64,000 nucleotides of DNA from Dehalococcoidia bacterium (lineage in GTDB: Bacteria; Chloroflexota; Dehalococcoidia; GIF9; UBA5629), in assembly GCA_050011565.1 (NCBI GenBank), contig JBEKIW010000006.1:1-64000 (forward strand), in the 5' to 3' direction. Below the pieces are notes generated by a model that was not told the DNA's origin, made no database searches, and was given only the letters and a program-made list of their open reading frames with translations. Positions 1 through 12,365 of this stretch are shown here, piece by piece; within the stretch, counting starts at the first letter, position 1, and each line of letters begins with the position of its first letter. The translations under genes and the position numbers were made by a program.

Positions 1-1
1 A

Positions 2-646
2 AACTTTGCCACCGCAATTGACGGCGTGAATACTCCGGAGCTGCAACAAGCTGACAACGACTATGCGGTTGGTCTGCTGATTCAAAAGATCGCAGACAGC
101 AAGTACGCCAACAACACGCTGATCTTTATCATTGAAGACGACGCCCAGGATGGACCTGATCACGTCGATTCGCATCGCAGCCCTGCCTACATCGTCGGTG
201 CTTATGTGAAGCAGGGTGCACTGATCTCCACGCAGTACAACACCATCGACTTTTTGCGCACGATAGAAATGGTCCTGGGCCTCCCGCCGATGAACCTGAA
301 CGACGCACTCGGGAGACCCATGGCTGATGTCTTCAACACGACGCCGAGCAAGTGGAGCTTTACCGCCGCTCCCTCACCGGCTCTCTACAATACAGAACTG
401 CCGCTGCCTCCCAAGTCGGCCAGCCTGATCGTGCCCAGGCCAACGCACGACGCGGAATACTGGGCAGAGGTCACGAAAGGGATGGACTTTACCTCCGCAG
501 ATAAGATGGATTTCCCGACCTACAATCGCATCCTTTGGACAGGGTTGATGAGCGGTCAACTTTATCCCGCCGCACCGACCGGAATGGACCTGAGGCAGAA
601 CCGCAAAGAGCTCCTCGCGAGATACGAACAGTCTCTGAAGCAATGA
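2..646 (+). CDS. C-terminal part of a phosphoesterase/alkaline-phosphatase-superfamily protein (YncE-phosphoesterase fusion type); 5' truncated by the window edge
   Basis: Frame open from base 2; motif IFIIEDDAQDGPDHVDSHRS; visibly GC-richer than the DNA that follows. Confidence 0.7.
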   Translation, partial: NFATAIDGVNTPELQQADNDYAVGLLIQKIADSKYANNTLIFIIEDDAQDGPDHVDSHRSPAYIVGAYVKQGALISTQYNTIDFLRTIEMVLGLPPMNLNDALGRPMADVFNTTPSKWSFTAAPSPALYNTELPLPPKSASLIVPRPTHDAEYWAEVTKGMDFTSADKMDFPTYNRILWTGLMSGQLYPAAPTGMDLRQNRKELLARYEQSLKQ

Positions 647-740
647 CCCGTTTGGCGTAGGCGGCTACAACTATCCAGAAGGAAGTCTGGGTGAATTCTA
701 TTTGCTTCGTCGGGAAATTAACAATCGTTGTAGACAGTGA

Positions 741-768
741 CATTCTAATAAAACGGTTTATTAGAATT
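741..768. repeat. Palindromic site with 11-6-11 Xer/dif-like geometry
   Basis: CATTCTAATAA-AACGGT-TTATTAGAATT; perfect 11-bp inverted repeat at 742-752/757-767; TAA-N6-TTA core. Confidence 0.5.
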
Positions 769-1128
769 TTGCCTTCTATCTATGCTCGTATACTGCCTGC
801 TGCCCATCTCTTCCAGTTGCAAGGAACAATCTGACTGAGCACTGCCTTTTTTAGTCAGTCTGACGCACTATTTGGTTCTCCTTTTTATTGTCTTCAATGT
901 AATTGAACCAAAGCCTGTATTGTGCAACCCTGATTAAGAGGCCGGGCAGTCAAATACGCCTCGGATCTCCGTCAATTTTTTAAGGCAAATGTCTATATTT
1001 ATTAAGGTATATTATCTGCCTGTTTAAGTAAACACTTGTCCACAAATGTTGAGCCCATGCCCCCCGTATTCTTTAGCCTCGCCCTTGGACAGCAGCCAAA
1101 TATACTGCTTTGTGCATCTACTCAACTT

Positions 1129-1668
1129 CTAACGGAATAAGAAGTCAAGTATCCCATCTTCTGCTTTGTCGGGATGCTTATTGGGTTCAGTCTGAGCATC
1201 ATCACGCCCACTACTAACTTCCTGTTTACTGACCTCCAAGAAACTGACTCTACGGCAAAGATCATCTACCGATTTTGTAATTCTATTCAGTGTCTCCTCA
1301 AGCTGAACGACTTTGCTGCTCGCGGTGTCTTTTTTAGGACTGCTTCCCAACGCCATGAGTTTATCTTCAAGCTTACCAAGTTTCTCCTTGATAGCTTGGA
1401 GTTCGTTATTAATGTCTTTGCCAATCTGTTGGTATGTATCCTCAAACGCACATACCTTGGATCTTAGAGTCTCAATTTCCGCTTTGCTAGAGTCCCCATT
1501 TCCCTCAGCCTTAGCAGTCTGTTCCTGCTCAAGCCTGGCCACTTCATTATTCTGCTCCACCATCGGGGCTTTGGCAGGGTTGTCTCGATTAGGCTTGACC
1601 TTAGCCTTAGGCTTTCCCTCTTGAAAGGACACGTCAACCAGTCGGTAAAACTCTTCAGCAGTCTTCAT
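1129..1668 (-). CDS. Hypothetical coiled-coil protein
   Basis: 179-aa ORF with E/K/L heptad-rich middle; GGAGG RBS; overlaps the stop of the upstream Zn-ribbon ORF. Confidence 0.65.
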   Translation of the reverse strand: MKTAEEFYRLVDVSFQEGKPKAKVKPNRDNPAKAPMVEQNNEVARLEQEQTAKAEGNGDSSKAEIETLRSKVCAFEDTYQQIGKDINNELQAIKEKLGKLEDKLMALGSSPKKDTASSKVVQLEETLNRITKSVDDLCRRVSFLEVSKQEVSSGRDDAQTEPNKHPDKAEDGILDFLFR

Positions 1669-1867
1669 CTTTACCCTCCATCGTCTCTATGACTTTTTTA
1701 GCGAATAATTGATAGGCTGGTTCCTCTCGAATATAGAACTGGCAACCGCAGCCCCCATCCTTGGTAAAACACGAGTATAGTGGACGGTTCGATTTACTCA
1801 GAACCACCTTAACTCGGTGCCCGCAGAGCAGACACCTCACAAATATTTCCTTTTCTACCTTAACCAT
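1655..1867 (-). CDS. Small zinc-ribbon protein (possible excisionase or regulator)
   Basis: CLLC...CFTKDGGCGC Cys pattern; divergent from the integrase. Confidence 0.6.
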   Translation of the reverse strand: MVKVEKEIFVRCLLCGHRVKVVLSKSNRPLYSCFTKDGGCGCQFYIREEPAYQLFAKKVIETMEGKDEDC

Positions 1868-1903
1868 TACCGTAATACCTTAACCCCTCTTACCTTGGGC
1901 AGC

Positions 1904-2764
1904 ATGAGTTATGGCAACCTCAAAAAAGCTCTGGACTCTTTGGTGTGGAAAAGTTATGATTGGCCTACCATCAATGTCAGGTCTTTCATATTTCTTGATA
2001 AATTCCTGCAATCCCGCAGACAAGGTTCATCCGTTAGAACTATCGAATTCTATGAATGTTGCCTTAAGCCATTTGTCCTGAACTATGAGCTTACTACCGA
2101 GGGCATAAATCAATTCCTAAGAAGTCTTGCATGCGGTAATGGCAAGCATGGATATTACCGAGCTATAAGGGCATTCTGTAACTGGCTGTACAGGAATGGT
2201 TATGTCAAGTCCAACCCTATCGAGAATGTCGATCCTCCGAAACAATCAAGAAAGCTATTGCCATGTCTTAATGAAGATGAGGTCGAGTACATACTTGAAC
2301 AGGCAAGAAATGTCCGGGATCGGGCTATTATCAGTTTATTTGTTGATAGCGGTATAAGACTTAATGAACTGGTAAACATCAGGCTTGATGATATTGACTG
2401 GGAAAGCCAGACTGTAATGATTATGGGTAAAGGCAATAAGCAACGGAAAGCCCTGTTCACTGAGCGGACTGCGTCTATGCTTAAGCAGTTGAACATGGAT
2501 AATGAGCATGGGAATATCTGGGGAATGACCAGACGAGGAATAATGATCATGCTCTACCGGTTACATAAGCAGACTGGGTTACCGTCTAATCCTCATACAT
2601 TCAGGCGGACATTTGCATCGAATCTACATAGGCATGGATTGGATGTTGAGCATATTATGAGGTTAGGAGGATGGGAGAGCCTTGATATGGTGCTAAGGTA
2701 TACAAAGAGCGTGAAGTTTGAGGAGAGCTTGAAGGTATACAGGGAACTTGAGAGCATGGGTTAA
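1904..2764 (+). CDS. Tyrosine recombinase/integrase (XerC/D-like)
   Basis: SAM-like N-domain, then GIRLNEL (R), KGNK (K), HTFRR, LGGW and LRY catalytic Tyr; ATG 1904 chosen over GTG 1817. Confidence 0.93.
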   Translation: MSYGNLKKALDSLVWKSYDWPTINVRSFIFLDKFLQSRRQGSSVRTIEFYECCLKPFVLNYELTTEGINQFLRSLACGNGKHGYYRAIRAFCNWLYRNGYVKSNPIENVDPPKQSRKLLPCLNEDEVEYILEQARNVRDRAIISLFVDSGIRLNELVNIRLDDIDWESQTVMIMGKGNKQRKALFTERTASMLKQLNMDNEHGNIWGMTRRGIMIMLYRLHKQTGLPSNPHTFRRTFASNLHRHGLDVEHIMRLGGWESLDMVLRYTKSVKFEESLKVYRELESMG

Positions 2765-2800
2765 AAGGGTTAGATGGGTTAATAAAATAATGTATGGGCT
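2758..2800 (+). repeat. Module left-end site L1
   Basis: 2766-2800 matches 3434-3468 at 33/35; 2758-2772 is a perfect 15-bp inverted repeat of 3389-3403; contains the integrase stop codon. Confidence 0.85.
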
Positions 2801-2871
2801 GCTAATTTCCCGAATCTATTATATAATGACACTTATACTCTCCCAAACCAAAATAACAAAGGGGAAAGACC

Positions 2872-3330
2872 ATGGCTTGGAAATTACCCAAACGAATTAG
2901 AGAGAAACAGTTTTCCATCTATTCAATTCCTTGGGCATTTTTGCTCCTTATGCTATCGATATCTATATTATGTATTGCAATGGCATATAATCTCTATGCG
3001 GTATACATGATCCTTCCAGGTCATTTGGTCACTATGAACACTCTCTTTTTTCTAGGGTCCGCCCAAATTATGGGGAGTGTGGGGTTTATTCTACTTGTCA
3101 TTACAGTAGTATTACTTATTTCCAAACTCTTGTCTAAGACAAAAGACCCTGTAAAAGAAGACCTCGCAAAAATACATAAAGACAGTAGAAATATGGCACG
3201 TGAGATACATGAATTACGTATGTCTCTAGATAACTTTGTCAAATCTTTTCAGGGGGTTAGTAATGCCCAAACAACCATAAAGGCGAAGACAGACAAAAGG
3301 AAAAAGGAAGAGAAGGGTGGAAAAACATAA
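2872..3330 (+). CDS. Hypothetical membrane protein (two TM helices, basic coiled-coil tail)
   Basis: 152-aa ORF; two hydrophobic segments; purine-rich RBS. Confidence 0.7.
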   Translation: MAWKLPKRIREKQFSIYSIPWAFLLLMLSISILCIAMAYNLYAVYMILPGHLVTMNTLFFLGSAQIMGSVGFILLVITVVLLISKLLSKTKDPVKEDLAKIHKDSRNMAREIHELRMSLDNFVKSFQGVSNAQTTIKAKTDKRKKEEKGGKT

Positions 3331-3360
3331 GATAACCAGAGACCAGAATTCTAAGATATC

Positions 3361-3468
3361 CCCATATACTTAAAAACCCTAACCTTATTAACCCTTTTAA
3401 CCCTTGCGCTTGGACTCTAAGCTGTAGGGTAATAGGGTCAGATGGGTTAATAAAATAGTGTATGGGCT
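3361..3468. repeat. Composite junction site R1+L2 forming a long imperfect inverted repeat
   Basis: CCCATATAC (3361) pairs with GTGTATGGG (3458-3466); TAACCC runs face GGGTAA/GGGTCA/GGGTTA runs; R1 (3364-3386) matches 5049-5071 at 22/23. Confidence 0.85.
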
Positions 3469-3574
3469 TGTTTGTTTGGAGTCCTGACCATCCCCGAATG
3501 GATCAAACTCCGGTCACATTTTGGCTATGTGGGTATCCTTTTAAAGAATTACTAAACAATCTCCAAGAAAGCAC

Positions 3575-3603
3575 TTGACATCTTTGGTATTATCAGGTAC
3601 AAA
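3575..3603 (+). promoter_or_regulatory. Sigma70-type promoter for the 3710 gene
   Basis: TTGACA-17 nt-TACAAA. Confidence 0.55.
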
Positions 3604-3709
3604 TATTCTAATCTAGACTCACAGTATCAATGTAAATAGGAGCCGTTAAGTTGCCACTCTGTAAATGGCCGGTTAGATGGCGGGAAGCCTACGGTGAAAG
3701 AGGTTGAAA

Positions 3710-4288
3710 ATGGAGATATCACATAAATCAGACTCAAGTCCGGTATTCGGCAGTCCAGAAAGACATATCACCAAGGAACAATTGAAGGTGTGTATCTACA
3801 CTCCCACTTGCATGCTCAGCGGATATATTCATTGCTTGCAGAGGCAACGCCTTTTGGACCTACTCAACAACGTAGTGGTAGGCGAATTGCGTCTTGGCAC
3901 CGACTTTTTGCCTGTGACAGAAGCCACCAGCCACAACCAGGATGGCACAGAAACAACAACGCAATTGACCCTAATTAATAAGGCAAACATCCTCTTCATA
4001 AATGAGATTGAGCAACATGGAGAGCCCAGTACAGAGGCAAGTTATAAGTTACCTACAGCGAGAGAGAAATTACCTATCATCGCCAAGCTCCACATACCAC
4101 CCTATATACTCAGCGGAGAGATGCATTGTGCCAAAGGGCATCGATTGTCAGACTTGCTAAATACCAAGGATATGTTCCTACCTATGACAAATGTGGATAT
4201 AGTCCCCTCATCGGGTATCAGACAATCGGCTGTCTTTGTAGCTGTTAATAAGGCGCAGATAATCTATGCCGAGGAGACATCGCCGTAA
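3710..4288 (+). CDS. Hypothetical protein with an internal domain duplication (DUF6812-like)
   Basis: Two copies of LSGxxHC...RLxDLLN...FLPxT...NKAxI. Confidence 0.7.
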   Translation: MEISHKSDSSPVFGSPERHITKEQLKVCIYTPTCMLSGYIHCLQRQRLLDLLNNVVVGELRLGTDFLPVTEATSHNQDGTETTTQLTLINKANILFINEIEQHGEPSTEASYKLPTAREKLPIIAKLHIPPYILSGEMHCAKGHRLSDLLNTKDMFLPMTNVDIVPSSGIRQSAVFVAVNKAQIIYAEETSP

Positions 4289-4355
4289 GTCGATTCAAAT
4301 ATATATAAAAAGGCTATTGGCAGTCCTTCTCTTTCTTTTTTATCCATCATTCAAA

Positions 4356-4973
4356 CTACTTAAGCCAAACCCAATTATCTGATGTCTGTGATTGGACCTT
4401 GTAGTTACTAGGTACACAAAGAATCTTAACCGTAGGCCATTGCTTTTTTTGATCTGCTAATTGCTCTCGTAATTTGTAGTAATACTCTTTCATTATCTCT
4501 CTGTCGAAATCCAATTGGACAAAGTTGAGAAAGTATGGATTTTGCACTCGGTTGTCCTGATCAGTAAGTTTTTCAATGTCCCATTTTACTATGTCGAGTA
4601 CTTCCTTAGTGTTTAATCTATCTACCCATATTTTAACTTCGACAGCAATCAGCAATTTAACCCTCGATAGAAAATCGTCCCAAGGCGCCCATGGTTTGAA
4701 GGCGAGGACATTTGGGTCTCTAAATGATACAGGTTCCAAAATTACCAAGTCATAGTGACCTCTAGCCCTTCTCTTACCATACTTATTAATGGTTGGAAAT
4801 TCTGCACGAATGAGCTCAATTGCCTGAGCTTTCTCGAGTATGTCATTGTTCCTGAGATTAAATAGAAGGTTCCAATGTATGTCCCGTTCCGTCCAGTATC
4901 TATCAGGCCAACTTTGGAAATCTGTAACAACTTGACCAATCGCCCTCTCAAGTGCTTCTATGAGTTTTATCAC
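4356..4973 (-). CDS. Putative PD-(D/E)xK nuclease-fold protein
   Basis: TERDI helix, GHYDLVIL and IAVEVK motifs; AT-rich. Confidence 0.55.
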   Translation of the reverse strand: MIKLIEALERAIGQVVTDFQSWPDRYWTERDIHWNLLFNLRNNDILEKAQAIELIRAEFPTINKYGKRRARGHYDLVILEPVSFRDPNVLAFKPWAPWDDFLSRVKLLIAVEVKIWVDRLNTKEVLDIVKWDIEKLTDQDNRVQNPYFLNFVQLDFDREIMKEYYYKLREQLADQKKQWPTVKILCVPSNYKVQSQTSDNWVWLK

Positions 4974-5048
4974 TACCAACTCCGAATCAGCTGGGATTAG
5001 ACGTATCTACTGCAATTATACTCTTGCCTAAACTACAATAGAATACTT

Positions 5049-5090
5049 ATATATTTAAAAACCCTAACCTTTCTATCCCTACACAGCTTA
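5049..5090 (+). repeat. Module right-end site R2
   Basis: ATATATTTAAAAACCCTAACCTT is 22/23 identical to R1; the following CTATCCCTACACAGCTTA is an imperfect inverted repeat of 3418-3435. Confidence 0.8.
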
Positions 5091-5124
5091 TATATTCAAA
5101 CTCCAACACTCCCCCAACCTAACC

Positions 5125-5445
5125 TTCTGCACTCTGCGCCCTGCAACTTCCTGCAGTAATGCCTAGCCCAGGGCTCCCCTGCCTTCTGGAATTCAAAAAC
5201 TAATGCAGGCGGCTTCTGCAGATAATGCAGGTAGCAGAAAACGCCACTTACCAGATGTCAGACTAAGCACTTGGTTTTATCCATGACAAACCTAAGTTGC
5301 AAATCCTGCGCACAAATTTAAAAATCGCAGAAACACTGTTAAAGGACACCAACATTCAATCGGATAGCCGCTAGATTTGAAGCGCAGGAACTGTAGAAAC
5401 CAGATTCGGTCAATGTGGCATCCTCATGCAGAAAATGCAGAGGAG
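5125..5445. repeat. Cluster of inverted CTGCA/TGCAG pentamers (iteron-like)
   Basis: CTGC(A/G) at 5127, 5134, 5141, 5151; (T/A)GCAG at 5204, 5217, 5226, 5233, 5427, 5436; no convincing ORF. Confidence 0.55.
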
Positions 5446-5463
5446 CTAAGTTATACCAATTAG

Positions 5464-5712
5464 CTACAAGATCTTTGACAGTAGAACAAGAGTCAACATG
5501 ACCAGTGCGAATACGGCAAAGAAAATTCCAAAGATTCTGTATATCCATATTTCGCGGTTTCGTAAACGTAGGTTAGCATCATTGTCATCGGATCTTGCTA
5601 CTTTCCCCCAAAACCGAGTGATCCAATCTACTAACCTGTCAGAAAAAATAGCCATTAATATTCCCGACAAGAAAACTAAAGAATAAATAATTGATATAGC
5701 TATTATTGACAT
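5464..5712 (-). CDS. Small two-TM membrane protein
   Basis: 82 aa with two hydrophobic helices; overlaps the upstream gene stop. Confidence 0.6.
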   Translation of the reverse strand: MSIIAISIIYSLVFLSGILMAIFSDRLVDWITRFWGKVARSDDNDANLRLRNREIWIYRIFGIFFAVFALVMLTLVLLSKIL

Positions 5713-6287
5713 GGTAAAGGTCCAATATGCCTGGCTATAGTCTCCAAGATATCAAATAATTCGAGACTGGGTAAGAAATAGCTCGTTCTGATCCTTGTAC
5801 ATCTATACTTTGGTTCGGGCACAATTTCCAGAAGGCCGCGAAGAGACCTTAGGTCCGTATTAAGCAACTTATTTTTCAGTTGATTATCGAAATTTAATTC
5901 TCGCACTAGGTCAGTATCACCTCTCCATTCCATGCCAACTATTTTGGCCGAATAAATATTGATGAAGATTAATAAGTTACCCCCGAAGCTTCGTTTCATT
6001 ATAAGCTTAGCGTAATCCTCTCTCATACTAACATGGGGACTGGAAGTCCTCACTATAAAATCTAGGTACCACATATTCAAATACCGACTACGTACATTTA
6101 CAACATTTATTACGTCGATATCTCTGCCCTCCAGTTTGATAACCCCCATAACGTGCTCCCACCATATATGAGGCTGCCCACTTATGCCCCACCAGTTAGT
6201 TTCTTTCATTACGGAGGCATTAATTCCTATCACTTGAAGATGCTCACATAGTCCTGTTACCCTTGTTCCTATTCCTAGTTCTACCAT
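5703..6287 (-). CDS. Hypothetical protein
   Basis: 194-aa ORF with GGGGAG RBS; no recognised motif. Confidence 0.65.
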   Translation of the reverse strand: MVELGIGTRVTGLCEHLQVIGINASVMKETNWWGISGQPHIWWEHVMGVIKLEGRDIDVINVVNVRSRYLNMWYLDFIVRTSSPHVSMREDYAKLIMKRSFGGNLLIFINIYSAKIVGMEWRGDTDLVRELNFDNQLKNKLLNTDLRSLRGLLEIVPEPKYRCTRIRTSYFLPSLELFDILETIARHIGPLPCQ

Positions 6288-6532
6288 GCTCCCCCCGCTT
6301 TTCGGCCAACACCGATCTCTAGTTTATTAGCCATTTCTTTTCTACCTTGTCTCAAGGCCCATAATATAACAGAAATACATTAACTTCCAAAACCTGGCAT
6401 TTTATATATTAACCAAAATTAGCTGGCCTTAAAATGCAAATAGGCATGATGCAATAAGGATATATGGATCATTTATCTTATTATTAAGGCCTCAGGGATT
6501 GGATCTGTACGGAATCAAATTTATCCTCGAAA

Positions 6533-6706
6533 TTACTGCTGTTCCTTATTAACGTCTCGTTCCACCTCAGCAACAGCTTTATAAATGAGCCTGTACGCTT
6601 CTGCTACCCATTGCGCAGGATATTTGTCCTCTCCTATTTTAGTTGGCAAATTTACCCTACCTAAAAATGCAACTAGAATATCCCTTGCTATCTCATCGTT
6701 AGACAT
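6533..6706 (-). CDS. Small hypothetical helical protein (57 aa)
   Basis: AGGAGGT RBS before ATG 6706; MSNDEIARDILVAFLG...AEAYRLIYKAV. Confidence 0.65.
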   Translation of the reverse strand: MSNDEIARDILVAFLGRVNLPTKIGEDKYPAQWVAEAYRLIYKAVAEVERDVNKEQQ

Positions 6707-6840
6707 AGTCCACCTCCTAACGATGATTATATCACTAGGCTGGAAGGCGTCAATAACGGAGGAAGCCAAGTCCAAAGCTAACCAACAAGTTGGCAAAGCT
6801 ACAGTTGACGTATGATCTAAATGTTGACATGCATAAATTC

Positions 6841-6895
6841 GAGCACCTGACTTTTGATCAGGGTGTCACAGGTTCGAATCCTGTACGGCCTACCA
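6841..6895 (+). tRNA. 3' fragment of tRNA-Lys(UUU), non-functional (attR of the island)
   Basis: GAGCA, anticodon arm CCTGA-CTTTTGA-TCAGG, T arm ACAGG-TTCGAAT-CCTGT, ACGGCCT-A-CCA; 5' acceptor strand and D-loop absent; G at position 37 instead of the usual A. Confidence 0.85.
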
Positions 6896-6919
6896 TTCAT
6901 GTCCTGTCTCGCCCGCAAG

Positions 6920-7354
6920 TCACAACTCGCCGCTCTGGGTAAGGAGAGTATATACCCCAAAAATATCTTTCGGATGTAGCCATATCTCTCTCATGCCTCG
7001 ACCGTGTCCCTTACCACCTACAAGATCAGCATCGGTTATATCACCAACTACCCGAATTCCCATCTCTTCCGCCTTAGCTCTGGCTTTGCCGGCGTCCGGA
7101 GTCTTGAATCCAACAGCATAAAGTCCCTCACCCCTCTTGTCGATGAATTTGGCGACATCGCTGTCCGGGCGGGTTGGTGATAGTATTTCCAACCTATTAT
7201 CACCGATAACGCTTATAAAACCTACCGCCTTATTTTCACCGATCTTTCTGAATTTAGCGCCCGTGAATTCCGAAAAGAATTTCTGGGCCTTTTCTATATC
7301 TTTAACGGCTATTACTACATGGCTAAGGTCGCCTATGAGTCGCTCTTCCTCCAT
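6920..7354 (-). CDS. VOC-family protein (methylmalonyl-CoA epimerase-like)
   Basis: SHVVIAVKD, LEILSP, FIDKRGEGL and HPKD motifs. Confidence 0.8.
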   Translation of the reverse strand: MEEERLIGDLSHVVIAVKDIEKAQKFFSEFTGAKFRKIGENKAVGFISVIGDNRLEILSPTRPDSDVAKFIDKRGEGLYAVGFKTPDAGKARAKAEEMGIRVVGDITDADLVGGKGHGRGMREIWLHPKDIFGVYTLLTQSGEL

Positions 7355-7654
7355 ATCTAAACCCCCTTTCAAGATTGTTATTAAATTATATAGTCATGGG
7401 CAGGAGTTCTCAAACACCTCACTTGGCAGCCACAGGAAACGCTATAAATAGGATCGAGGTTATGTATCACTAATGTTTGGACGAGTACAGCCTTTTTGCT
7501 CTTGCTCATAGTGCGTGTTAAAATGCTCAAAGCTGTCCGCTGTGTGATGTTTAGAGCCAGAACTAAGAGCATAGTACTGATATTGTCAAGCAAACATATG
7601 AAGCTGCGAGTCCATATATTGTCGACAATCTAAAACTTATTCGCGAGGTACCAG

Positions 7655-8605
7655 ATGGATCGTAAGACTAAAATTGAGATGCTGAGGAGAATGCTACTGA
7701 TCAGGCATCTCGAGAATAAGTGGGGCGAGGCTTACCAAAGGCAAGAAATTGATGGAATACCTCCTTCTCTCAGTACCGGGCAAGAAGCAGTGTCAGTCGG
7801 CGCCTGCATGGCCTTAAAGCCCGGCGACTTTGTCTTTACCACGCACCGTGGTGTTGGGCCACAAGTTGCCATGGGCATGGACCCGGACCGGATAATGGCT
7901 GACGTTTGCTACAAAGCTACCGGTTACAACAAGGGGAAATCATACCATGTAACCAGCATTGAACATGGCGTGGTTGGCACGGGTGGCATTGTAGGTGGGC
8001 AGATACCCGTGGCTGCAGGGCTGGCTTTAGCCTTTAAATTGAGGGGGCTCAAGCAGGTGGCCATGCCCTTCTTTGGCGAAGGAGCGTCTAATGAGGGAGC
8101 CTTTCACGAGGCGGCAAATTTAGCCGCGATTTGGAAACTGCCGGTTATCTTTCTATGCGAAAATAATATGTACGCTATCTCGCTCAGATTTGAAGAGTTC
8201 ATTCCTGTTAAGAGTGTAGCCATAAGAGCTAAAGCCTACGGGATGCCTGGTGTAACCGTCGATGGGAACGACGTCATCTCTGTATATGAGGCGGTACGTA
8301 AGGCAGCGGAAAGGGCCAGAAGGGGTCTTGGGCCCAGCCTGGTTGAGGCCAAGACGTACAGACTCGCCGGCCATCTGCTCGATGACCCCGGCCATTATCG
8401 TCCTAAGGAAGAGGTGAAAGAACAGTGGTCTAAGTGCCCCATCCTGAGGTTTAAGACTCAATTAGAATCTGAGGGTATCTTAAAGAATGAAGATATGGAT
8501 AGATTGGAGCGTGAGATTAAGGAAGTAGCGGAAAAGGCGGCGGATTTTGCCAGAAAAAGCCCCTGCCCGGAGGCGGAAGAAGCCTTTACTGATATTTTCG
8601 CTTAG
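7655..8605 (+). CDS. TPP-dependent dehydrogenase E1 alpha subunit (AcoA/PdhA family)
   Basis: GQEA, THRG, GEGA...ENN TPP motif, TYRLAGH. Confidence 0.9.
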   Translation: MDRKTKIEMLRRMLLIRHLENKWGEAYQRQEIDGIPPSLSTGQEAVSVGACMALKPGDFVFTTHRGVGPQVAMGMDPDRIMADVCYKATGYNKGKSYHVTSIEHGVVGTGGIVGGQIPVAAGLALAFKLRGLKQVAMPFFGEGASNEGAFHEAANLAAIWKLPVIFLCENNMYAISLRFEEFIPVKSVAIRAKAYGMPGVTVDGNDVISVYEAVRKAAERARRGLGPSLVEAKTYRLAGHLLDDPGHYRPKEEVKEQWSKCPILRFKTQLESEGILKNEDMDRLEREIKEVAEKAADFARKSPCPEAEEAFTDIFA

Positions 8606-8616
8606 GCTGTGAAGAA

Positions 8617-9654
8617 ATGTTTCCCAGAAGACTTTTTGAACACGGCGCCAAAATTCCTCCGGAGCAGAAGAAGCTACCCGGTTATCGGGGTGCCATCAAT
8701 GAAGCTCTTATGGAGGAAATGGAGAGGGACAGTCGAATCATAGTCATGGGGCAGGATGTGGGGAAAGCACCCCCCTTCGGCGTAACCCTAGGGCTACTGG
8801 GCAAATTTGGGCCAGAGCGGGTTCTGGATACGCCAATCTCAGAGATAGCTATGGTCGGAGCAGCAGTAGGCGCTGCCATCGGTGGTATGAGGGCTGTAGT
8901 GGAGATGCAGTTCGGAGACTTTCTTTCTTGTGCCATCGACCAGGTGGTACACCAGGCCGCTATGCTTCGGTACCTGACGGGGGGTCAAGTCAAAATGCCT
9001 ATGGTAATCAGGTTGCCTTGTGGCGCGGGGCAGGGTACAGGGTCTCACCACTCTCAGAGCATGTACTCCTGGTTCGTTCACAGCCCGGGTCTCAGGGTTG
9101 TCGTTCCCTCCACGTCGGCGGATGCCAAAGGCCTGATGAAGACCGCATTGAGGCAAGATAACCCGGTGCTCTTCTTTGAGGGAAAGATGTTATACCGAAC
9201 CAGATGGGAGGTGCCTCCCGAGTATTACAATGCCGATTTCACTATACCTTTCGGCAAAGCCGATATAAAGAGACAGGGACGAGATATTACCGTGGTGGCT
9301 ACCCTGACCATGGTTCATTATGCCATTGAGGCGGCTAAACGTTTGGAAGCGGAAGGCACGTCTGTGGAAGTTATCGACCCTCGCACCCTGGCTCCTCTGG
9401 ATGTGGAAACGATACTGGCCTCGGTAAGAAAGACCGGCCGCCTGGTAGTCGTAGACGAAGCTTATCTGGGCTGTGGCATTCAGGGAGAGATAATCGCCAC
9501 CGTCACAGAAAAAGCCTTTCATCACTTGAAAGCACCTCCCATCCGTCTGGGAAACCCAGGCGTGCCTGTGCCTTTCGCACCGACGTTGGAGCAGGCGGTG
9601 ATTCCAAACGTAGATAAGATAGAACAGGCAATCAGGAAAACGTTGAAAGCTTGA
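8617..9654 (+). CDS. TPP-dependent dehydrogenase E1 beta subunit
   Basis: DTPISE, EMQFGDF, HHSQS, EVIDPRTL. Confidence 0.9.
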   Translation: MFPRRLFEHGAKIPPEQKKLPGYRGAINEALMEEMERDSRIIVMGQDVGKAPPFGVTLGLLGKFGPERVLDTPISEIAMVGAAVGAAIGGMRAVVEMQFGDFLSCAIDQVVHQAAMLRYLTGGQVKMPMVIRLPCGAGQGTGSHHSQSMYSWFVHSPGLRVVVPSTSADAKGLMKTALRQDNPVLFFEGKMLYRTRWEVPPEYYNADFTIPFGKADIKRQGRDITVVATLTMVHYAIEAAKRLEAEGTSVEVIDPRTLAPLDVETILASVRKTGRLVVVDEAYLGCGIQGEIIATVTEKAFHHLKAPPIRLGNPGVPVPFAPTLEQAVIPNVDKIEQAIRKTLKA

Positions 9655-9706
9655 ATCTTACCGCCGCCGGGTGTAATCTCTACAGTTCTATAACGAGGAG
9701 GATGCC

Positions 9707-10525
9707 GTGCCTACGGCCAAAGTCGGTGACATAAATATCTACTACGAAGTGGAGGGCGAGGGAGAAGCGCTAGCCTTGATAATGGGCTTAGGGGGCGGCA
9801 TTCCTTGGTTGTTCCGGCAGGTTCCGTCATTCTCACAACAATACCAAGTAGTTGCTTTCGATAACAGAGGGACCGGAGGCAGCGATGCTCCGGATATTCC
9901 CTATTCGATGGAGATGATGGCCGGCGACCTTGCCGGTCTGCTGGAAAACATCGGTATTAAAACTACACATGTTTTTGGTATATCCATGGGCGGCATGATA
10001 GCCCAGCACTTTGCTCTACTTTATCCCGAAAAAGTGAAGACCCTCATATTGGGGGCTACTACGTGCGGTGGATCTCACAGGATAATGCCGGATATGGAGG
10101 CAATCAAAGTCCTTTTCGACATGGACCGTATGCAAAAGCTGACTCCGGAAGAGCGGGCAAGGGAGACCCTTCCCTTTGTCTTCAGCCAGGAGTTCATCAA
10201 AACCAATCAAGCGCTTATTCAACAACTTCTGGCGAAAATGGTGGGGCACGTCACTCCCCTACATGGCTATGTGAGGCAGGCGGGCGCGATAATGGGTCAC
10301 GATACTTACGAGCGCCTACCGGAGATTAAGGCGCCCACTCTGGTAATCGCCGGAGACGCCGATAAGCTGGTACCGGTGGAGAACTCCAGGCTGATTGCCT
10401 CCAGGATACCCAACGCCGAATTGGTGACACTGAAAAACATGGGCCACGGTTTCAACATCGAGGCGGCTGATGAAGTGAACCATGTTGTGCTGCGCTTCCT
10501 CAACCGGCACAGCCGTCCTGGCTAG
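9707..10525 (+). CDS. Alpha/beta hydrolase (enol-lactone hydrolase-like)
   Basis: DNRGTG, GISMGG nucleophile elbow, GDAD, GHG. Confidence 0.88.
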   Translation: MPTAKVGDINIYYEVEGEGEALALIMGLGGGIPWLFRQVPSFSQQYQVVAFDNRGTGGSDAPDIPYSMEMMAGDLAGLLENIGIKTTHVFGISMGGMIAQHFALLYPEKVKTLILGATTCGGSHRIMPDMEAIKVLFDMDRMQKLTPEERARETLPFVFSQEFIKTNQALIQQLLAKMVGHVTPLHGYVRQAGAIMGHDTYERLPEIKAPTLVIAGDADKLVPVENSRLIASRIPNAELVTLKNMGHGFNIEAADEVNHVVLRFLNRHSRPG

Positions 10526-10528
10526 CGT

Positions 10529-11281
10529 CTACCATTCATTCAGGCTTTTAAACACCTCTTCGGGGTTAGTCCTGGAGCCCGTAACCAACCCCTGAGCCTC
10601 GCCGACCGCAATCTCATACTCATCTTTTTTCAATGAACTTATAACGGCTCTGGCCACTTCGGCTGGCGGTATACCTCTATTCGACTCCCCTTCTTCCTCT
10701 ACTGACCCTTTACCCAGTTCCGTATCTACCATCGGCGGCACTATCTCAAACACTTTAATTGACGTATCTTTCAACTGATGTCTTAGGGACATGGTGAAAG
10801 AGTGTACGGCGGCTTTAGTGGCACAGTAAACAGGCATGGAAGCTATGGGTACAAAAGCTAAACCGGACGAGACGTTAATAATCGCCGCCTCTTTTTGCTT
10901 AAGCAGCAACGGAATAAAATAGGCTGACAAATATATAGCGGCTGCCAGGTTGATTTCGATTTCATTTTCTCCACCCGTTAAATCCCGGATTTCCTTTTTA
11001 AAGTCAACCATTCGCTGAATTCCGGCATTGTTTATTAACATATTGAAATCTTTAAAATTATCTTTAACCCAGTCGAAAAGTGCTTTGCGCTCCTTCTCTT
11101 TTGAGACATCGCAAGTGCGGATGTATATCTGGGGCAATTTACGCTTGGCTTCTTCCAGCTTGCTCTGTCGCCGGCCGCAGATAATTACCTTGTTTCCAGC
11201 TCTTACCAGCGCTTCAGCCAGTGAAAAACCAATGCCGGTAGCTCCACCGGTGATAAGTACGGTGTTATTTCTAATCTTCAT
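10529..11281 (-). CDS. Short-chain dehydrogenase/reductase (DltE-like)
   Basis: TGGATGIG, NNAG, YCATK. Confidence 0.9.
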   Translation of the reverse strand: MKIRNNTVLITGGATGIGFSLAEALVRAGNKVIICGRRQSKLEEAKRKLPQIYIRTCDVSKEKERKALFDWVKDNFKDFNMLINNAGIQRMVDFKKEIRDLTGGENEIEINLAAAIYLSAYFIPLLLKQKEAAIINVSSGLAFVPIASMPVYCATKAAVHSFTMSLRHQLKDTSIKVFEIVPPMVDTELGKGSVEEEGESNRGIPPAEVARAVISSLKKDEYEIAVGEAQGLVTGSRTNPEEVFKSLNEW

Positions 11282-11357
11282 TGTTTATGCTCCTTCTCGA
11301 TAAATAATACGTGAAAAATCAGGATGTCTTATTGATTCAATGTACGCCTTCGAATTG

Positions 11358-12365
11358 CTAGTACTGGTCCTCTGCCTCGTCCCCATATACCTTCCCGGCA
11401 AATACTCCGTGCACATACATATTATAGACGATAATTATGGGCAGAATTATTCCGGCACCAAACAGCATAAATACTAAACTCGCCTGCGGCGACGCCGCCT
11501 GTGCTATGGAGAGTGAGAATGGAATGAAGTACGGAAATATACCGCCGATTGTGGCCGCAGCGATACCCAGGAATACAACAATAGCCCAAATATAGGGGGC
11601 TCTATCGCTCTTTTCATCTCTGGAGCTAATCAGCAGCATGATAAAGGCAAAGAGCACTACAAGCAAAAACAGTGGCACGAAATAAACCTGCGGCGGTCTA
11701 GACCATATCAGCGATAAAGGAGTATACGCCAACAACATCATAGCGATGACCGCAACAAACGATGCCAGGGCAATCGAAGCACTGCCCAGCAAAAGCCGCC
11801 GATTCTGAATTTGGACGGCTCCTTCCGTCTTACGCACCAGATGCGCCGCACCCATCATAGCGTAGGCAGCCAGTACTCCCATAGCTATGATGACCGACCC
11901 GAGATTCAGCCAGTCCCACGGCCCACCAACAAAGGAACCTCCCTCTATCTTCAGGTTACTGAATAATCCGCCAAAAATAAACCCCTGACCAGCGATAGCC
12001 AGGAGACAGCCTATCCCGAAGGCGATGCCCCATAAACGCTTATGCTCCGAATGGCCACGAAACTCGATAGACACGGCTCTGAAGACCAAGCCGAAAAGAA
12101 GCATCATTGCCGGGATATAAAGAGAGCTGAGTATAACGCCATAGGCCAACGGAAAAGCGCCGAATAGCGTAGCCCCACCCACAACAAGCCAGGTTTCATT
12201 GGCGTACCACAGCGGTCCGATAGCCACCAGCATAGTAGAGCGCCTGGACTCACCTGCATTTAGGGATAGTACACCGATTCCAAGGTCGGCCCCGTCCAAA
12301 GTGATGAACAGGGTCATGGTGACAACTAACAAAAAATACCAGAGCAGCGGTAGAAAAGCTCCCAT
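11358..12365 (-). CDS. cydB: Cytochrome bd ubiquinol oxidase subunit II
   Basis: LDGADLGIG, GPLWYANETWLV, RAVSIEFR; follows cydA. Confidence 0.93.
   Translation of the reverse strand: MGAFLPLLWYFLLVVTMTLFITLDGADLGIGVLSLNAGESRRSTMLVAIGPLWYANETWLVVGGATLFGAFPLAYGVILSSLYIPAMMLLFGLVFRAVSIEFRGHSEHKRLWGIAFGIGCLLAIAGQGFIFGGLFSNLKIEGGSFVGGPWDWLNLGSVIIAMGVLAAYAMMGAAHLVRKTEGAVQIQNRRLLLGSASIALASFVAVIAMMLLAYTPLSLIWSRPPQVYFVPLFLLVVLFAFIMLLISSRDEKSDRAPYIWAIVVFLGIAAATIGGIFPYFIPFSLSIAQAASPQASLVFMLFGAGIILPIIIVYNMYVHGVFAGKVYGDEAEDQY

Follow-up and report, generated by a model that had tools for sequence, protein, structure and literature searches.

A probable cassette array with a dedicated site family behind a Xer-like integrase in a decayed tRNA-Lys island of Dehalococcoidia

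A tyrosine recombinase gene at the start of contig C6 of a Dehalococcoidia genome (G000; assembly GCA_050011565.1, 99% complete, 8 contigs) is followed by two modules of unrelated genes that are framed by copies of the same short site. Here we describe this locus, which lies in the first 64,000 nucleotides of the contig (JBEKIW010000006.1); this whole stretch is referred to as the window. Each module has the form L-cargo-R, and successive modules meet head to head as R-spacer-L. The array opens with an L that is fused to the 3' end of the integrase gene and closes with an R joined to the backbone of a genomic island (Table 1). Most likely, the locus is a small cassette array with a dedicated site family, placed behind a Xer-like integrase and inside a decayed tRNA-Lys island.

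The initial annotation of this DNA had described two adjacent modules with shared ends, and the matches that it reported are reproduced by blastn-short at 33 of 35 positions for L1 and L2 and at 22 of 23 for R1 and R2. Over longer alignments, L1 and L2 agree at 90% over 42 nt (2759-2800 and 3427-3468), and R1 and R2 at 88% over 32 nt (3364-3395 and 5049-5080). The outer ends of each module are inverted repeats of each other, as first described: a perfect repeat of 15 bp in module 1 (2758-2772 and 3389-3403) and, by reading, an imperfect one with a 2-nt indel in module 2 (3418-3435 and 5073-5090). L and R had been described as separate pairs of ends. L and the reverse complement of R nevertheless form one family. 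Aligned with the sites of a related genome, G010, the four sites L1, L2, R1 and R2 are copies of a single site of about 50 bp, which we call S, forward in L and reverse in R. S is laid out as three GGTTA-type repeats with 9-bp spacing, followed by an A/T-rich stretch and then GTATGGG. The three repeat blocks are the invariant or nearly invariant columns in an alignment of 25 sites from 7 loci, and part of one repeat has been lost in R2. The integrase stop codon (2762-2764) does lie inside L1, as had been noted.

A 28-nt L core and a 23-nt R core, allowing up to 3 mismatches, each occur twice in the 64-kb window, a number reached in 0 of 100 shuffles for either core; across the whole genome of 1,996,460 bases the L core is found at those two places only. 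A sequence-only covariance model (CM) made from the 25 aligned sites, and run with stricter filters on 77 genomes of the family, gives exactly 4 matches in G000, every one at the array locus. The R1+L2 junction had been proposed to fold into a hairpin of about 106 nt. The fold exists but is weak, reaching -15.5 kcal/mol as single-stranded DNA (z = -2.4, equalled by 3 of 200 shuffles) and z = -2.1 on the other strand; the hairpin is no more than two head-to-head copies of S. The integron motif GTTRRRY, reported as lacking, is indeed unconserved across the 25 sites, yet it is present once as GTTAGAT at 2769-2775 in L1. By reading, the junction spacers of the window, of the related genomes G010 and G186 and of metagenome contig L049 have a YTGG(A/C) motif in common, which in the window is CTTGGA between short inverted arms.

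Two resemblances to S were set aside. The GGTTA repeats were likened to the tRNA T-arm GGTTCGAA, a 5-base match that has no statistical weight and serves as a lead only. A viral contig (L157:1997-2039) contains a perfect threefold repeat of AAGGTTAAT that encodes KVNKVNKVN inside a 273-aa open reading frame (ORF); among the viral contigs no other stretch fits a degenerate S pattern exactly, and a relation to S is improbable.

Table 1. Features of the array and of the surrounding island, in window positions
Feature	Position	Strand	Basis
Xer/XerA-like tyrosine integrase, 286 aa	1904..2764	+	PF00589, E = 1.1e-27
Left attachment-repeat remnant, tRNA-Lys 3'-end-like	1962..1984	+	83% direct repeat with 6887-6909
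Site L1, fused to integrase 3' end	2748..2800	+	CM match, E = 2.1e-10
Cargo 1, 152 aa, hydrophobic by eye	2872..3330	+	ORF
Site R1	3361..3413	-	CM match, E = 1.4e-9
R1/L2 spacer with CTTGGA motif, candidate crossover region	3405..3426	.	by reading
Site L2	3416..3468	+	CM match, E = 1.5e-8
Cargo 2a, 194 aa, two DUF6812 domains	3704..4288	+	PF20660, E = 2.3e-22
Cargo 2b, 207 aa	4356..4979	-	opposite strand to cargo 2a
Site R2, last of the array, joined to backbone	5046..5099	-	CM match, E = 5.6e-4
Conserved non-coding island backbone after the array	5065..5406	.	79% over 350 bp against G010
tRNA-Lys(UUU) 3' fragment and right attachment repeat, island right end	6831..6909	+	

Relatives of the integrase were retrieved as the best 80 of 191 metagenome relatives and 28 in species-representative genomes (27 distinct loci). 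Some tyrosine recombinase is present in 41 of 41 genomes searched (40 relatives and G000); close homologues of the window integrase are those of G010 (82% identity), G016 (75-77%), G186 (75%) and metagenome contig L049 (85%). After the stop codon, the window has L, R-L, R, that is 2 modules, while G010 has L, R, R-L, R-L, R, that is 4 modules, followed by the same backbone as after R2 in the window. G186 has L, R-L, R-L, corresponding to 2 modules and a truncated third, then about 140 bp and a backbone unlike that of the window; a decayed 3' fragment of another tRNA lies between its last S and the backbone (L045:5280-5330, minus reading) and hints at a further, different integration event. L049 holds at least 3 modules, read as L, a displaced integrase tail with a second L, R-L and the contig end. 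In G016 there is no module and the stop codon abuts a backbone of the G186 type, as in an empty site. Integrases 75-100% identical are thus followed by 0, 2, 2+, at least 3 and 4 modules, and in this variability the arrays are like those of integron cassettes. The first site overlaps the integrase stop codon in all four arrays, and the site orientations run + - + - in the window, + - - + - + - in G010 and + - + - + in G186.

The initial annotation had considered that the sites might occur only here or always flank identical cargo. Instead, the S family recurs in G010, G186 and L049 and the cargo is unrelated, one module common to G010 and L049 standing after different neighbours. This shared module, of three to four genes, is 89% identical over 2.5 kb, and the modules before it differ between the two loci. 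The R1-L2 junction in its full length matches the Rc-Ld junction of G010 at 88% over 97 bp, and L1 is a chimera whose left part follows site La of G010 and whose right part is identical to its site Ld at 30 of 30 positions. The R site of L049 is likewise a chimera, with an outer part like Ra of G010 and an inner part like Rb, as expected from R x R recombination that deletes or inserts module b of G010. In the window the two ends of each module are the best-matching pair; in G010 the best-matching partners are those that face each other at a junction, not the two ends of one module.

A BLAST search with the R1-L2 junction against 202 genomes of the order matched 5, namely G000, G010, G186 and two weak ones. 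The S model likewise matched 5 of the 77 family genomes, and just three of these, G000, G010 and G186, have more than one site. G010 has 8 sites, all at the array locus and one of them within the integrase gene; G186 has 5 at its array locus and 1 elsewhere; G024 has one solo S and G016 only the copy internal to the integrase gene. The solo sites lie at L156:9743-9789 (contig C1 of G186) and L155:9971-10020 (contig C4 of G024), and the former, with about 60 bp downstream, resembles the last array L of that genome with its following sequence. S stands directly after the stop codon in 7 of the 99 locus rows that have the integrase 3' end, corresponding to 5 distinct sequences: the window, L049, G010 (three rows), G186 and L122. 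At the more distant loci L075 and L121, R-L junctions are found further downstream of the integrase. In many relatives more distant than the close homologues, the integrase stop codon is followed by CTACAATGCAG-like stretches that resemble the backbone at 5090-5406 of the window. Judged from the genomes compared, the array system is real but rare and confined to a small clade of the integrase family.

In several independent comparisons of related loci, the breakpoints lie at S or within it. Comparing G186 with G016, the array is inserted exactly between the integrase stop codon and the backbone. In locus L057 (8480-8722; also in L111), a second copy of S together with the last 70 integrase codons stands behind two cargo genes; this duplicate is about 83% similar to the resident copy and the similarity starts at the left edge of S. 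A displaced and diverged copy of the last approximately 80 bp of the integrase gene, with L, is found at L049:2149-2263, and another displaced integrase tail lies downstream of cargo at L121:1931-1985. Such displaced tails beside cargo are the signature of insertion at a site in or near the integrase gene, and the incoming DNA seems to have supplied that gene with a new tail.

Variants also turned up when Logan contigs were mapped to positions 1-8000 at 90% likeness; the contigs came from four public metagenome runs, not one of which is flagged as a possible source of this DNA. A contig of run X5 joins 3404 to 5104, so that module 2 is absent, and the 24 letters between these positions resemble the end-of-array sequence of G010. 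A contig of 1135 nt from run X4 has module 1 (2759-3404) in another context: 37 letters of R and junction-type spacer replace the integrase end before it and the 441 letters after it are foreign to the window. Positions 2759 and 3404, at which these contigs depart from the window sequence, mark the inner edges of S. A contig of run X5 also has 7+2+1 extra letters at R2. Coverage of the C-terminal half of the integrase is near 0 in runs X4, X5 and X8, and that of module 2 is deep; since depth in contigs cannot rank the parts of the locus, the gaps by themselves are given no weight. No strand-changing joint was seen in the contigs of the four runs, and both modules shared between loci (G010/L049 and L075/L121) keep the same orientation relative to the integrase.

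The recombinase had been called non-integron and this assignment holds. The integron-integrase models TIGR02249 and PRK15417 give 60.2 bits against a cutoff of 265 and 44.6 bits against a cutoff of 435, spanning residues 39-195 only. The best NCBIfam matches are XerA, XerC and XerD, each below its cutoff, and the nearest solved structures are XerC-like, XerA and XerD recombinases. Aligned by eye to solved Xer-type recombinases, the active-site positions R, K, HxxR, W and Y are kept. The ORF is intact, and the ratio of nonsynonymous to synonymous substitution rates (dN/dS) is 0.08-0.13 against four relatives, with dS near saturation; by this measure the gene is under purifying selection. No relative of the integrase was found among the viral contigs searched.

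Full-length S-like stretches are also present inside the integrase ORF of many relatives, where 19 of 42 nhmmer matches fall (examples are L140:10535-10571, L129:10528-10571 and L081:1926-1969). They encode a loop rich in K/R, V and N immediately before a conserved NIWG motif and are absent from the integrases of the window and of G186. Their position within the integrase ORF ties the site family to the integrase family. Scattered C-terminal fragments of the integrase were considered as marks of recombination at these internal sites and rejected as such: their starts vary between residues 205 and 241, several of them adjoin other tRNAs, and the peptide-pattern search that found them is biased toward the conserved C-terminus. 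Most of these fragments are probably ordinary decayed integrases.

The array stands in a low-GC stretch at about 650-7500, within an island of about 5 kb bounded by a tRNA-Lys(UUU) 3' fragment (6831-6884) and a 23-bp direct repeat (1962-1984/6887-6909), the left copy of which now lies within the 5' end of the integrase ORF. The fragment gives an Rfam tRNA match of 29.6 bits covering model positions 10-63 of 71, and in 1-12000 ARAGORN detects no tRNA that is intact. G000 has its intact tRNA-Lys(ttt) on contig C4, which indicates that the island of the window is stranded and partly decayed. An intact tRNA-Lys, at the place that corresponds to the left repeat remnant of the window, directly precedes the integrase in G010, G016 and L049, and the far end of the G010 island is formed by another copy of the tRNA 3' end. 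Of the features that define a tRNA island, the integrase beside a tRNA is thus present in all three of these relatives and the tRNA 3' repeat at the far end in G010, and the window has the remnants.

Full-length relatives of the integrase start with a helix-turn-helix (HTH) domain that the window integrase does not have. A single ORF combining an XRE-type HTH (HTH_3), a linker derived from tRNA-Lys and the integrase is found at L058:280-1314, L062:1-1023 and L081:1150-2217; at L073:2150-3085 the HTH is fused to the integrase with no tRNA-like stretch. In the integrated G010 island, the catalytic part of the integrase comes directly after the tRNA and an 80-aa ORF with the HTH and a tRNA-derived peptide lies at the far end. 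The stretches that bear on this arrangement also include L015:3393-3635 (minus) and, in the window, 1904-1990 and 6759-6909. Separated HTH and catalytic parts, with a tRNA-like linker, are what would be expected of an attachment core within the integrase ORF and of a gene that is cut in two when the island integrates. The full-length integrase thus seems to come apart on integration, as it does in archaeal SSV-type elements, and the window integrase has evidently lost its HTH part and gained a new start codon. It is just as likely that the fused HTH-integrase ORFs represent internal junctions between tandem islands and not free circles.

Other parts of the island vary as well. Window 5406-6359 is a further variable segment with no S, carrying ORFs 5464-5712 and 5703-6287 (both minus) and absent from G010; metagenome contigs join 2283 to 5412 (X4) and 5725 to 6359 (X8) here. 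The backbone at 5090-5406 is rich in short repeats of the TGCAG/TGCGC type. At 1129-1867 (minus), where relatives have the 5' part of tRNA-Lys, the window has a 70-aa Zn_ribbon_recom protein and a 179-aa coiled-coil protein; neither belongs to the island in G010, G016 or G186.

Across the arrays, modules measure 0.6-4.9 kb, with cargo on either strand and often 2-4 genes. The duplicated-domain gene of the initial annotation is confirmed in cargo 2a, in which Pfam finds DUF6812 in two stretches. Its 'nuclease-like' gene could not be upheld: cargo 2b has no match in Pfam, NCBIfam or PADLOC, its nearest Atlas clusters are unnamed hypothetical proteins and its single-sequence fold (predicted local distance difference test, pLDDT, of 36) is unusable. 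Apart from DUF6812 the window cargo as a whole gives no Pfam, NCBIfam or PADLOC match and only unnamed Atlas clusters, and none of its three proteins has a tblastn match at E<1e-5 in any other fetched locus. From the ORF lists, the cargo of the other arrays also differs from array to array, bar the one G010/L049 module. The few Pfam matches in array cargo are DUF6812, Mrr_cat, HSDR_N, zinc ribbons, an IS110 transposase, HNH and a methyltransferase. PADLOC gives two weak restriction-enzyme matches only, both to L049 proteins; reading the cargo as a defence island was considered and is unsupported beyond the Mrr_cat and HSDR_N domains in L049. Counts of promoters and terminators in 2600-5500 are no higher than in shuffles (promoter-like sites, 9 versus 7.7 expected).

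We interpret these arrays as the product of conservative site-specific cassette exchange carried out by the adjacent Xer-like integrase, with crossover in the R-L spacer, and put the probability of this reading at roughly 0.6. It agrees with the gene-capture or shuffling system with its own site family that had initially been proposed: the same ends surround varied cargo, in varied number and order, next to homologous integrases. That the adjacent integrase would be the enzyme acting on S is suggested by the linkage of the two (the first site lies over the stop codon in four arrays), by the purifying selection on the gene and by the S-like stretches in the integrase ORFs of relatives. Integrase subunits would occupy the repeats that flank the spacer and carry out strand exchange within it, near the CTTGGA-like motif, the three repeats per side serving as integrase-binding or accessory sites. 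The end hybrids share only the bases to the left of the motif, for which reason we infer a crossover there. A circular module with an attP-like R-spacer-L could enter or leave at any junction, the circle being a presumed intermediate; its entry into a target B-B' would yield a B-L hybrid first, R-L junctions inside and an R-B' hybrid last, and two arrays could swap modules in the same way.

A number of findings weigh against this reading. Arrays are rare, being present in 3 of the 77 family genomes, and neither solo S has an integrase homologue within 10 kb. The island of the window is decayed, with neither an intact tRNA nor the HTH part of the integrase. S consists of three direct repeats, unlike a classical core site with its two inverted arms, and tyrosine recombinases normally require identical central bases, whereas here spacer length varies between 6 and about 48 bp and the central bases differ from junction to junction. 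Module b of G010 lies between two R sites and the G186 array ends with a lone L. The X4 and X5 joints come from contigs, not reads, with sides of 37 and 41 letters and depths of 7.5 and 5.9; joints below 95% likeness may stem from repeats or from DNA of other organisms; and the contigs showed no circle junction. Finally, the R1-L2 junction is kept as a unit in G010 (Rc-Ld), with different cargo on both sides, which a single crossover in the spacer is insufficient to produce. This suggests that exchanges also take place at the cargo-side edges, or that the sites are homogenised.

A more far-reaching version would make the system an independent integron analogue in Dehalococcoidia, in which an integrase that is split and rejoined runs double-strand exchange on the palindromic R-spacer-L and in which gene-internal sites let cassettes replace the C-terminal part of the protein. 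We regard this version as tentative, with the odds somewhat against it.

Among the explanations without ongoing exchange, the one to be taken most seriously is a fossil mosaic, in which tandem tRNA-Lys islands have decayed by deletion and homologous recombination and S is a regulatory or arm-type site. The state of the window island, with a tRNA fragment only and no HTH exon, would suit it, as would the common occurrence of integrase C-terminal fragments and tail copies in these genomes and the variable segment at 5406-6359, which has joints at 5412, 5725 and 6359 in the same island but no S; homologous recombination could also delete DNA between direct copies of S. However, 50-bp repeats of 80-90% identity cannot import new S-framed cargo homologously, the modules are free of island backbone and integrase remains, breakpoints fall at the edges of S in at least 5 independent comparisons and the integrase is under purifying selection. 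We consider a fossil mosaic unlikely. A weaker case can be made for S as a set of operators or iteron-like sites bound by the HTH protein of the island or by a replication or partition protein, the modules having arrived otherwise. Three tandem repeats with an A/T-rich stretch do look like iterons or operators, S-like stretches occur inside integrase ORFs and the viral contig has its perfect 9-bp triple repeat in a 273-aa ORF. Yet the sites stand at every module border in inverted pairs and are unclustered, and natural variants break exactly at S. The initial annotation had named origin iterons beside rep or primase genes as a way for its proposal to fail; the cargo ORFs submitted to Pfam yielded no rep or primase family, and the sites are at module borders. 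This makes the operator reading very improbable.

The inverted copies of one site around each module, next to a tyrosine recombinase and in module 1 as a perfect 15-bp repeat, also recall a shufflon or inverton, in which the integrase would flip modules between L and R and thereby switch expression. Flipping would leave the differing number and content of modules unexplained, and it is at odds with the absence of strand-changing joints in the contigs of the four runs, with the constant orientation of the G010/L049 and L075/L121 modules, with cargo on either strand and with promoter-like sites that are not enriched; an inverton is less probable again than the operators. The least probable of all is that the L-cargo-R units are non-autonomous transposons, bounded by terminal inverted repeats, that happen to be nested here. 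Module ends are inverted repeats and, in the window, the ends of one module match each other best, but reading of the window sequence shows no target-site duplication, no transposase is consistently present, the best site partners in G010 are junction partners and the sites are undispersed, lying at the array locus in 4 of 4 cases in G000, 8 of 8 in G010 and 5 of 6 in G186.

To our knowledge, the capture and shuffling of single genes by site-specific recombination is well understood for just one bacterial platform, the integron, and in full-text search listings and the starts of abstracts we found no description of a system such as this one. If cassette exchange by the adjacent integrase is the true reading, gene-cassette capture would have evolved more than once. 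Integron detection tools look for IntI and attC; those in current use would miss a platform that combines a Xer-like enzyme with sequence-defined double-strand sites. Such a platform would also place cassette exchange in the streamlined, uncultured Dehalococcoidia, with accessory genes concentrated in small islands, and would provide a compact, testable system of one 286-aa enzyme and a 50-bp site.

Like integrons, sedentary chromosomal ones included, the arrays combine a tyrosine recombinase gene with a neighbouring series of unrelated small modules and one family of imperfectly palindromic sites, the first of which abuts the recombinase gene, and the number and content of modules vary among close relatives. 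They depart from integrons in the features that define these, namely the type of integrase, the attC signature and the layout of the platform. The enzyme is Xer/XerA-like and scores well short of what the IntI models require. The array begins at the stop codon of the integrase gene, on the same strand, whereas integrons have attI upstream of a divergent intI and a Pc promoter. S is conserved in sequence and not in structure, folds weakly and has no conserved GTTRRRY. Cargo lies on both strands, often as 2-4 genes, whereas integron cassettes are mostly promoterless and in one orientation.

Accretion of cis-mobilizable elements (CIME) and integrative and conjugative elements (ICE) produces tandem integrative elements at one attachment site. 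Repeated site-specific integration, attP-like internal junctions and ends that are hybrids with the target are common to such accretion and the present arrays. In accretion of that kind it is the 3' end of a tRNA or tmRNA gene that is repeated, and the elements measure kilobases to tens of kilobases; here, a separate site family stands beside the integrase gene within an island and modules are 0.6-4.9 kb long. The ssrA islands of Dehalococcoides, in the same bacterial class, are a case of this kind (PMC3146451).

The island, as distinct from the array, resembles the elements with SSV-type integrases in having a tRNA-like attachment core inside the HTH-integrase ORF, the parts of which stand apart in the integrated G010 island. 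Archaeal viruses with SSV-type integrases carry attP within the integrase gene, which is divided in two when the virus integrates, and we know of this split arrangement only from archaeal viruses. The host here is a bacterium and the catalytic part Xer-like; the likeness described is one of arrangement. If confirmed, the split HTH-integrase would extend the arrangement of the archaeal viruses to Bacteria.

The pdif modules of Acinetobacter plasmids, in which neighbours are separated by one 28-bp XerC/XerD site and the host XerCD acts in trans, are similar in the alternating orientation of sites, the Xer-type recombinase and the inference of exchange from comparative data. They differ in that each border here has two sites of about 50 bp placed head to head, the integrase is the locus's own and the setting is a chromosomal tRNA island; by reading, S also has three direct repeats and not two inverted arms of 11 bp. 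The array is thus analogous to both integrons and pdif modules and a member of neither.

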